Source: a phage
Reading direction: 5' to 3' (one strand)
Sequence record: AH001322.2
Length of the DNA: 457 bases
Shown: positions 218 through 370 of the stretch, one piece after another
Layout: every line of letters begins with the position of its first letter
Numbering within the stretch: the first letter of the stretch is position 1
The notes under the pieces: generated by a model
Seen by the model: only the letters and a program-made list of their open reading frames with translations
Databases searched by the model: none
What the model was told of the DNA's origin: nothing
Translations under genes and position numbers: made by a program

Positions 218-284
218 CACTGTCGGCGAAGGTAAGTTGATGACTCATGATGAACCCTGTTCTATGGCTCCAGATGACAAACAT
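218..284 (-). CDS. insH: IS5 transposase InsH (DDE transposase), N-terminal 22 codons only; rest lost in the gap
   Basis: Minus-strand ATG (complement of 282-284) translates to M F V I W S H R T G F I M S H Q L T F A D S, matching the N-terminus of E. coli InsH as I remember it (MFVIWSHRTGFIMSHQLTFADSEF...). A second in-frame Met (complement of 246-248, MSHQLTFADS) is the alternative start used in some annotations. Confidence 0.8.
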
Positions 285-300
285 GATCTCACATCAGGGA

Positions 301-316
301 CTTGTTCGCACCTTCC
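301..316 (-). repeat. IS5 terminal inverted repeat (left IR, 16 bp)
   Basis: + strand cttgttcgcaccttcc at 301-316 is the reverse complement of GGAAGGTGCGAACAAG, the left IR of IS5 as I recall it. It sits at the outer boundary of the IS-like segment, directly beside flanking DNA. Confidence 0.85.
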
Positions 317-320
317 CTAA
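317..320. repeat. Candidate target-site tetramer CTAA at the IS5 junction (possible 4-bp target-site duplication copy)
   Basis: CTAA lies immediately outside the IR. IS5 is known to insert at YTAR (CTAG/CTAA-type) sites and make 4-bp duplications. The other junction is not in the sequenced part of the window, so the duplication itself cannot be confirmed. Confidence 0.45.
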
Positions 321-370
321 GTGATCCCCATGTAATGAATAAAAAGCAGTAATTAATACATCTGTTTCAT

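Follow-up and report, generated by a model that had tools for sequence, protein, structure and literature searches.

The 457-base window (the whole stretch of DNA analysed here) is very probably a bacteriophage Mu insertion in the lacZ gene of Escherichia coli, with a copy of IS5 lying within the right end of Mu and a gap in the sequence splitting the arrangement in two. In fact, only 357 of the bases are determined, and positions 118-217 are a run of exactly 100 N. Gaps whose size is not known are conventionally filled with a run of this length, and by that convention we take it for an assembly or scaffold gap of arbitrary length. From left to right, the window reads lacZ, the Mu left end, the gap, the IS5 left end, the Mu right end and lacZ again. 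It holds no open reading frame of usable length for a protein-based look-up; those that run across the N (72-320 on the plus strand and 114-284 on the minus strand) were rejected as artefacts of translating N.

The IS5 part lies on the minus strand, immediately to the right of the gap. Positions 218-316 align without a gap to the terminal 99 bp of MG1655 IS5A (element positions 1097-1195) and are identical at 98 of these 99 positions, the sole mismatch being a C for T at window 292, 25 bp from the tip. The match has a BLAST E value of 4e-42, and the same search returned 7309 IS5 places, spread over 1521 of the 5426 complete E. coli genomes. The alignment runs right up to the tip of the element, at window 316, and stops there; the tip reads ...GCACCTTCC (also written ...GTTCGCACCTTCC). 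On the minus strand, 316-301 form the 16-bp terminal inverted repeat GGAAGGTGCGAACAAG, identical to the end of IS5A, so that the tip carries the inverted repeat GGAAGGTGCGAA(C/T)AAG that marks members of IS5. The transposase gene insH starts 68 bp inside this left end, with its ATG at 248-246 and the same spacing from the tip as in MG1655; the ten codons visible (248-219, minus strand) encode MSHQLTFADS, which are the first ten residues of MG1655 InsH1 without a change. Directly abutting the tip, 317-320 read CTAA, a YTAR-type IS5 target that is native Mu sequence (Mu 36595-36598), and this is the only IS5 junction visible within the window. Judged by its sequence, the element is IS5 proper, at 98/99, and more than merely ISKpn26-like. 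It resembles the IS5 of E. coli K-12 (IS5 family, IS5 group, transposase InsH) in its inverted repeat, in the position and sequence of the insH start and in adjoining a YTAR tetranucleotide, and it differs from it by the one private substitution at 292. The earlier note on this DNA had called a known element family at this place, with an IS5 left end and insH start at 218-316, the element boundary between 316 and 317 and CTAA immediately outside; each of these calls holds up, including the near-identity to the IS5 terminus that it expected from BLASTN and the alignment of the minus-strand translation with InsH.

What lies on the far side of the tip is phage Mu. Positions 317-438 correspond to Mu 36595-36717, up to the final base of the Mu genome, with a single 1-nt gap in the alignment, and at the other side of the N run positions 12-117 correspond to Mu 1-108 (NC_000929), from the first Mu base onwards. 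Both stretches are on the plus strand. The left end (attL) starts with the terminal TG and the right end closes with the terminal CA at 437-438, both termini being identical to the ends of the reference phage. Matches to the MuA-site consensus fall at 18-37 (L1, in attL), 364-383 (R3, plus strand) and 392-411 (R2, minus strand), where none would be expected by chance, and R1 sits at the Mu right terminus in attR. Sites L2 and L3 would fall past Mu 108 and hence within the gap. Compared with phage Mu (NC_000929 / AF083977), the window is alike in its exact TG...CA ends, in sites L1 and R1-R3 and in the 5-bp target duplication described below; it is identical in sequence save for three private deletions of one base each, including one in R2, and it differs in that mom is interrupted by IS5 at its 3' end. 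Indeed, mom is annotated at Mu 35877-36602, and the CTAA target overlaps its last two codons, the final one, AAG, lying at 319-321 and the TGA stop at 322-324 (plus strand). The tip of IS5 is 122 bp from the right terminus of Mu and 46 bp upstream of R3, the outermost MuA site. Since the element sits this far from the Mu right end, attR is left intact. Its insH gene points into the gap, towards the Mu interior and away from attR.

The right end of Mu also contains two terminator-like hairpins on the plus strand, at 378-397 and 404-419, each followed by a T run (two found, against 0.2 expected in shuffled sequences). They overlap R3/R2 and R2/R1, respectively, and may merely reflect the repeated sequence of the MuA sites.

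Mu ends are also present elsewhere among E. coli genomes. Scores equal to that of the reference were obtained for E. coli W, S17-1, ST18, BW2952 and MFDpir, whereas the ends of wild Mu-like prophages are 95-97% identical. S17-1 (NZ_CP040667.1) and ST18 (NZ_CP060709.1) have two Mu left-end places each. In ST18, a conjugation donor, one left end (356877-356985) is in mhpC, adjoining the lac region, and a Mu right end follows at 393470-393594, about 36.6 kb away. A 51-kb plasmid of HB101 (NZ_CP178860.1) carries a Mu left end at 30522-30629, within a TraX-family gene.

The outer flanks of the window give the target of Mu. Transposition of Mu makes a 5-bp target duplication, and here the AGCAG at 7-11 is repeated as AGCAG at 439-443, each copy directly adjoining a Mu terminus. 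When the two flanks are joined and one AGCAG is removed, the result is GGCCGAAGCAGCGTTGTTGCAGTGC, a 25-mer that is matched at 25 of 25 positions in 5295 E. coli genomes, with one match in each, and that is also present in many plasmids bearing lac; all of the matches listed carry a lacZ annotation. The 25-mer is nt 2454-2478 of MG1655 lacZ, which places the duplication at lacZ nt 2460-2464 (around codon 820, approximately MG1655 363842-363846). Thus, positions 1-11 are lacZ nt 2454-2464, upstream of Mu, and positions 439-457 are lacZ nt 2460-2478, downstream of it; the plus strand of the window is the sense strand of lacZ. The lacZ reading frame runs into Mu as ...A-E-A-V-Y-stop, and because it meets this stop (TGA at 17-19) within the phage sequence, beta-galactosidase is truncated. 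A Mu insertion in lacZ points to a laboratory or Mu-exposed lineage. ZL901, an E. coli K-12 lacZ::Mu lysogen used in Mu research, also has its Mu prophage in lacZ, between MG1655 nt 366204 and 366205 (PMC3820752); the two insertions differ in their sites.

The arrangement most likely arose in three steps. Mu, or a derivative with canonical ends, would have transposed into lacZ at nt 2460-2464 with its left (c) end promoter-proximal, leaving the usual 5-bp duplication and a truncated beta-galactosidase. IS5 would then have inserted at the CTAA of Mu 36595-36598 by ordinary transposition through InsH, a DDE transposase. Lastly, the assembly would have broken within IS5, since this repeat is present in multiple copies, and the two resulting contigs would have been joined by a conventional 100-N gap. 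By this account the remainder of IS5 would lie in the gap, and the length of the gap would be arbitrary; if the 1195-bp element is intact, at least its other 1096 bp, the second inverted repeat included, must be there. Three points count against the nested reading: a single IS5 junction is visible; the two contigs are linked solely by the scaffold and by the matching AGCAG and lacZ flanks; and the four private differences, in 327 bp of mobile-element sequence that is otherwise invariant, point to low sequence quality.

These differences deserve a closer look. Three are the 1-nt deletions relative to the Mu reference, after window positions 99, 109 and 407, two of them in A runs; the deletion after 407 is in an A run inside MuA site R2. 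In none of the Mu-end matches listed, whether from E. coli genomes or phage records, are these deletions present. The fourth is the C at 292, which is found in 0 IS5 copies, no copy being 100% identical to 218-316 (1804 records). Together they suggest either a sequence of low quality, with errors in homopolymers, or mutations private to this record. Given the indications of low quality, fine details, among them the C at 292 and the R2 deletion, may be errors, and the apparent lesion in R2 should not be trusted without re-sequencing.

Could the junction between IS5 and Mu have been made by hand? Mu derivatives such as Mud, lambda placMu or mini-Mu cloning and fusion elements might have brought in an IS5 end with the construct or with its vector. 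Such an origin gains some appeal from the Mu ends present in laboratory strains and constructs, such as BW2952, S17-1, ST18, MFDpir and the HB101 plasmid, and from the standing of lacZ as a classic laboratory target, but we consider it highly improbable, as the junction is absent from the plasmid and phage collections and native Mu continues colinearly beyond the IS5 tip, beginning precisely at a YTAR site, the signature of a spontaneous insertion rather than of a cloning joint. In fact, it is because Mu resumes in this way, precisely at the tip, that the junction looks spontaneous rather than engineered.

The nested lacZ::Mu/IS5 reading admits more than one content for the gap. The plainest, to which we give a little under an even chance, is a single insertion of IS5 into an otherwise complete prophage, so that the N run stands for about 36.5 kb of Mu interior plus 1096 bp of IS5. 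The second IS5 junction would then read ...CCCTAA followed directly by GGAAGGTGCGAATAAG, the IS5 right end, and Mom is predicted to keep all of its 241 residues and to gain a 35-residue tail from that end, probably a near-neutral change in a non-essential gene. A simple insertion, however, needs an extra reason for the left contig to stop at Mu 108. The left edge of the gap (114-117, Mu 105-108) reads TTAG, which is itself a YTAR sequence and which is the reverse complement of the CTAA at 317-320, not its direct repeat. This TTAG may mark the other IS5 junction, meaning an internal deletion of Mu. IS5 would then join Mu nt 108 directly to Mu nt 36595, by intramolecular transposition of IS5 or by recombination between two IS5 copies in Mu, either of which could have produced it, and the left junction would read ...TTAG followed by GGAAGGTGCGAATAAG, again the IS5 right end. 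The product, a fossil mini-Mu of about 1.4 kb in lacZ consisting of attL with L1 only, IS5 and attR, strikes us as a serious possibility, though we hold both the deletion and this outcome somewhat short of even. It keeps the core of the nested explanation and differs solely in what the gap contains.

That the left contig stops exactly after TTAG favours such an IS5-bounded deletion, for YTAR sites take up only 1.2-2.1% of the positions in this DNA, and TTAG-IS5-CTAA, with its non-identical flanks, is the expected product of a deletion; the two contigs have also been scaffolded side by side. Yet a TTAG at the edge could be due to chance (about 2%), and a reference-guided scaffolder would place two contigs anchored in lacZ together whatever lies between them. 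Moreover, 99 bp of IS5 are present to the right of the gap and none to the left, an asymmetry that one would not expect of an assembler. It is also conceivable, but very improbable, that the 100 N are exactly 100 masked bases, in which case IS5 would be a truncated copy, no longer than 199 bp, joined to some other sequence about 100 bp from Mu nt 108. The run is indeed exactly 100 N long and some collections mask with N; however, the same number is the standard gap placeholder, and a truncated IS5 near Mu nt 108-208 would require an extra, unsupported rearrangement. An attempt to deduce the gap content from the assembler or its k-mer size, using the 99-bp and 106-bp repeat overhangs, was dropped when the numbers fitted no single scheme.

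The uninterrupted form of the locus that the earlier note wished to see compared with the window is phage Mu itself. None of 5426 complete E. coli genomes, 72,556 PLSDB plasmids and 50,697 phage records has the IS5/Mu junction, and an exact pattern scan gave 0 occurrences in GTDB representative genomes, JGI metagenomes and IMG/VR; the same kind of scan for the junction between lacZ and the Mu left end gave 0 in GTDB representative genomes and JGI metagenomes. When 218-457 were compared by megablast with the complete E. coli genomes, the plasmids and the phages, no place covered both the IS5 and the Mu parts. Since neither junction occurs in any of the collections searched, the insertion is strain-specific. 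A search of the literature turned up no sequenced lacZ::Mu strain carrying IS5 that would match.

Some plasmid matches reach 20 nt past the IS5 tip, and we considered them as a conserved feature. They were rejected: the target there is a different one, TTAG, and the alignment reflects chance resemblance. Plasmid NZ_CP091807.1 (1590-1620) and about a dozen other Klebsiella and Enterobacter plasmids have IS5 followed by TTAG and a weakly Mu-like flank (..TCCCATG..).

IS5 has been seen in phages before. Its occurrence in Mu X mutants was reported by Chow and Broker (1978, J Bacteriol 133:1427), as cited in PMC3091744; those cases are alike in having IS5 in Mu and differ in the site of insertion. 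Annotated copies are also found in P1 (AF234172/3, NC_005856), where the feature notes give a 4-bp IS5 target duplication, and in nmpC of phage 434 (OL657227), both of which resemble the present case in carrying IS5 within a temperate phage or prophage and again differ in the insertion site. The insertions of the Mu X mutants reportedly lie in the early region, not in mom.

IS5 is also known as an activator of silent operons in E. coli (bgl, glpFK, fucAO, flhDC), and the earlier note had raised this prospect for the flagged copy. The element is the same, but its neighbour is not: here it is followed by 122 bp of Mu attR and then by the 3' third of a disrupted lacZ. The stretch from the IS5 tip to the Mu terminus holds no gene, and a scan for sigma-70-like promoters across the IS5/Mu junction found none. 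With no host operon beside the element, activation of the kind known from bgl, glpFK or flhDC does not apply, and most likely this IS5 copy has no regulatory role.

All of the components described here are textbook material, from IS5 and the target gene lacZ to Mu, its ends and its 5-bp duplication. All that is added is their context, a copy of IS5 within the right end of a Mu insertion in lacZ. This arrangement accounts for the Lac-minus allele of one strain and for a gap in its assembly, and it leaves the flagged IS5 copy with no host operon to activate. It also argues that IS junctions should be read with both of their flanks, which in this case reveal Mu in lacZ. If IS5 does bound a deletion of the Mu interior, the window would represent a spontaneous, IS-bounded mini-Mu. 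It would illustrate neatly how a transposable prophage can decay through an IS element until only its ends are left, although decay of this kind is already well documented.
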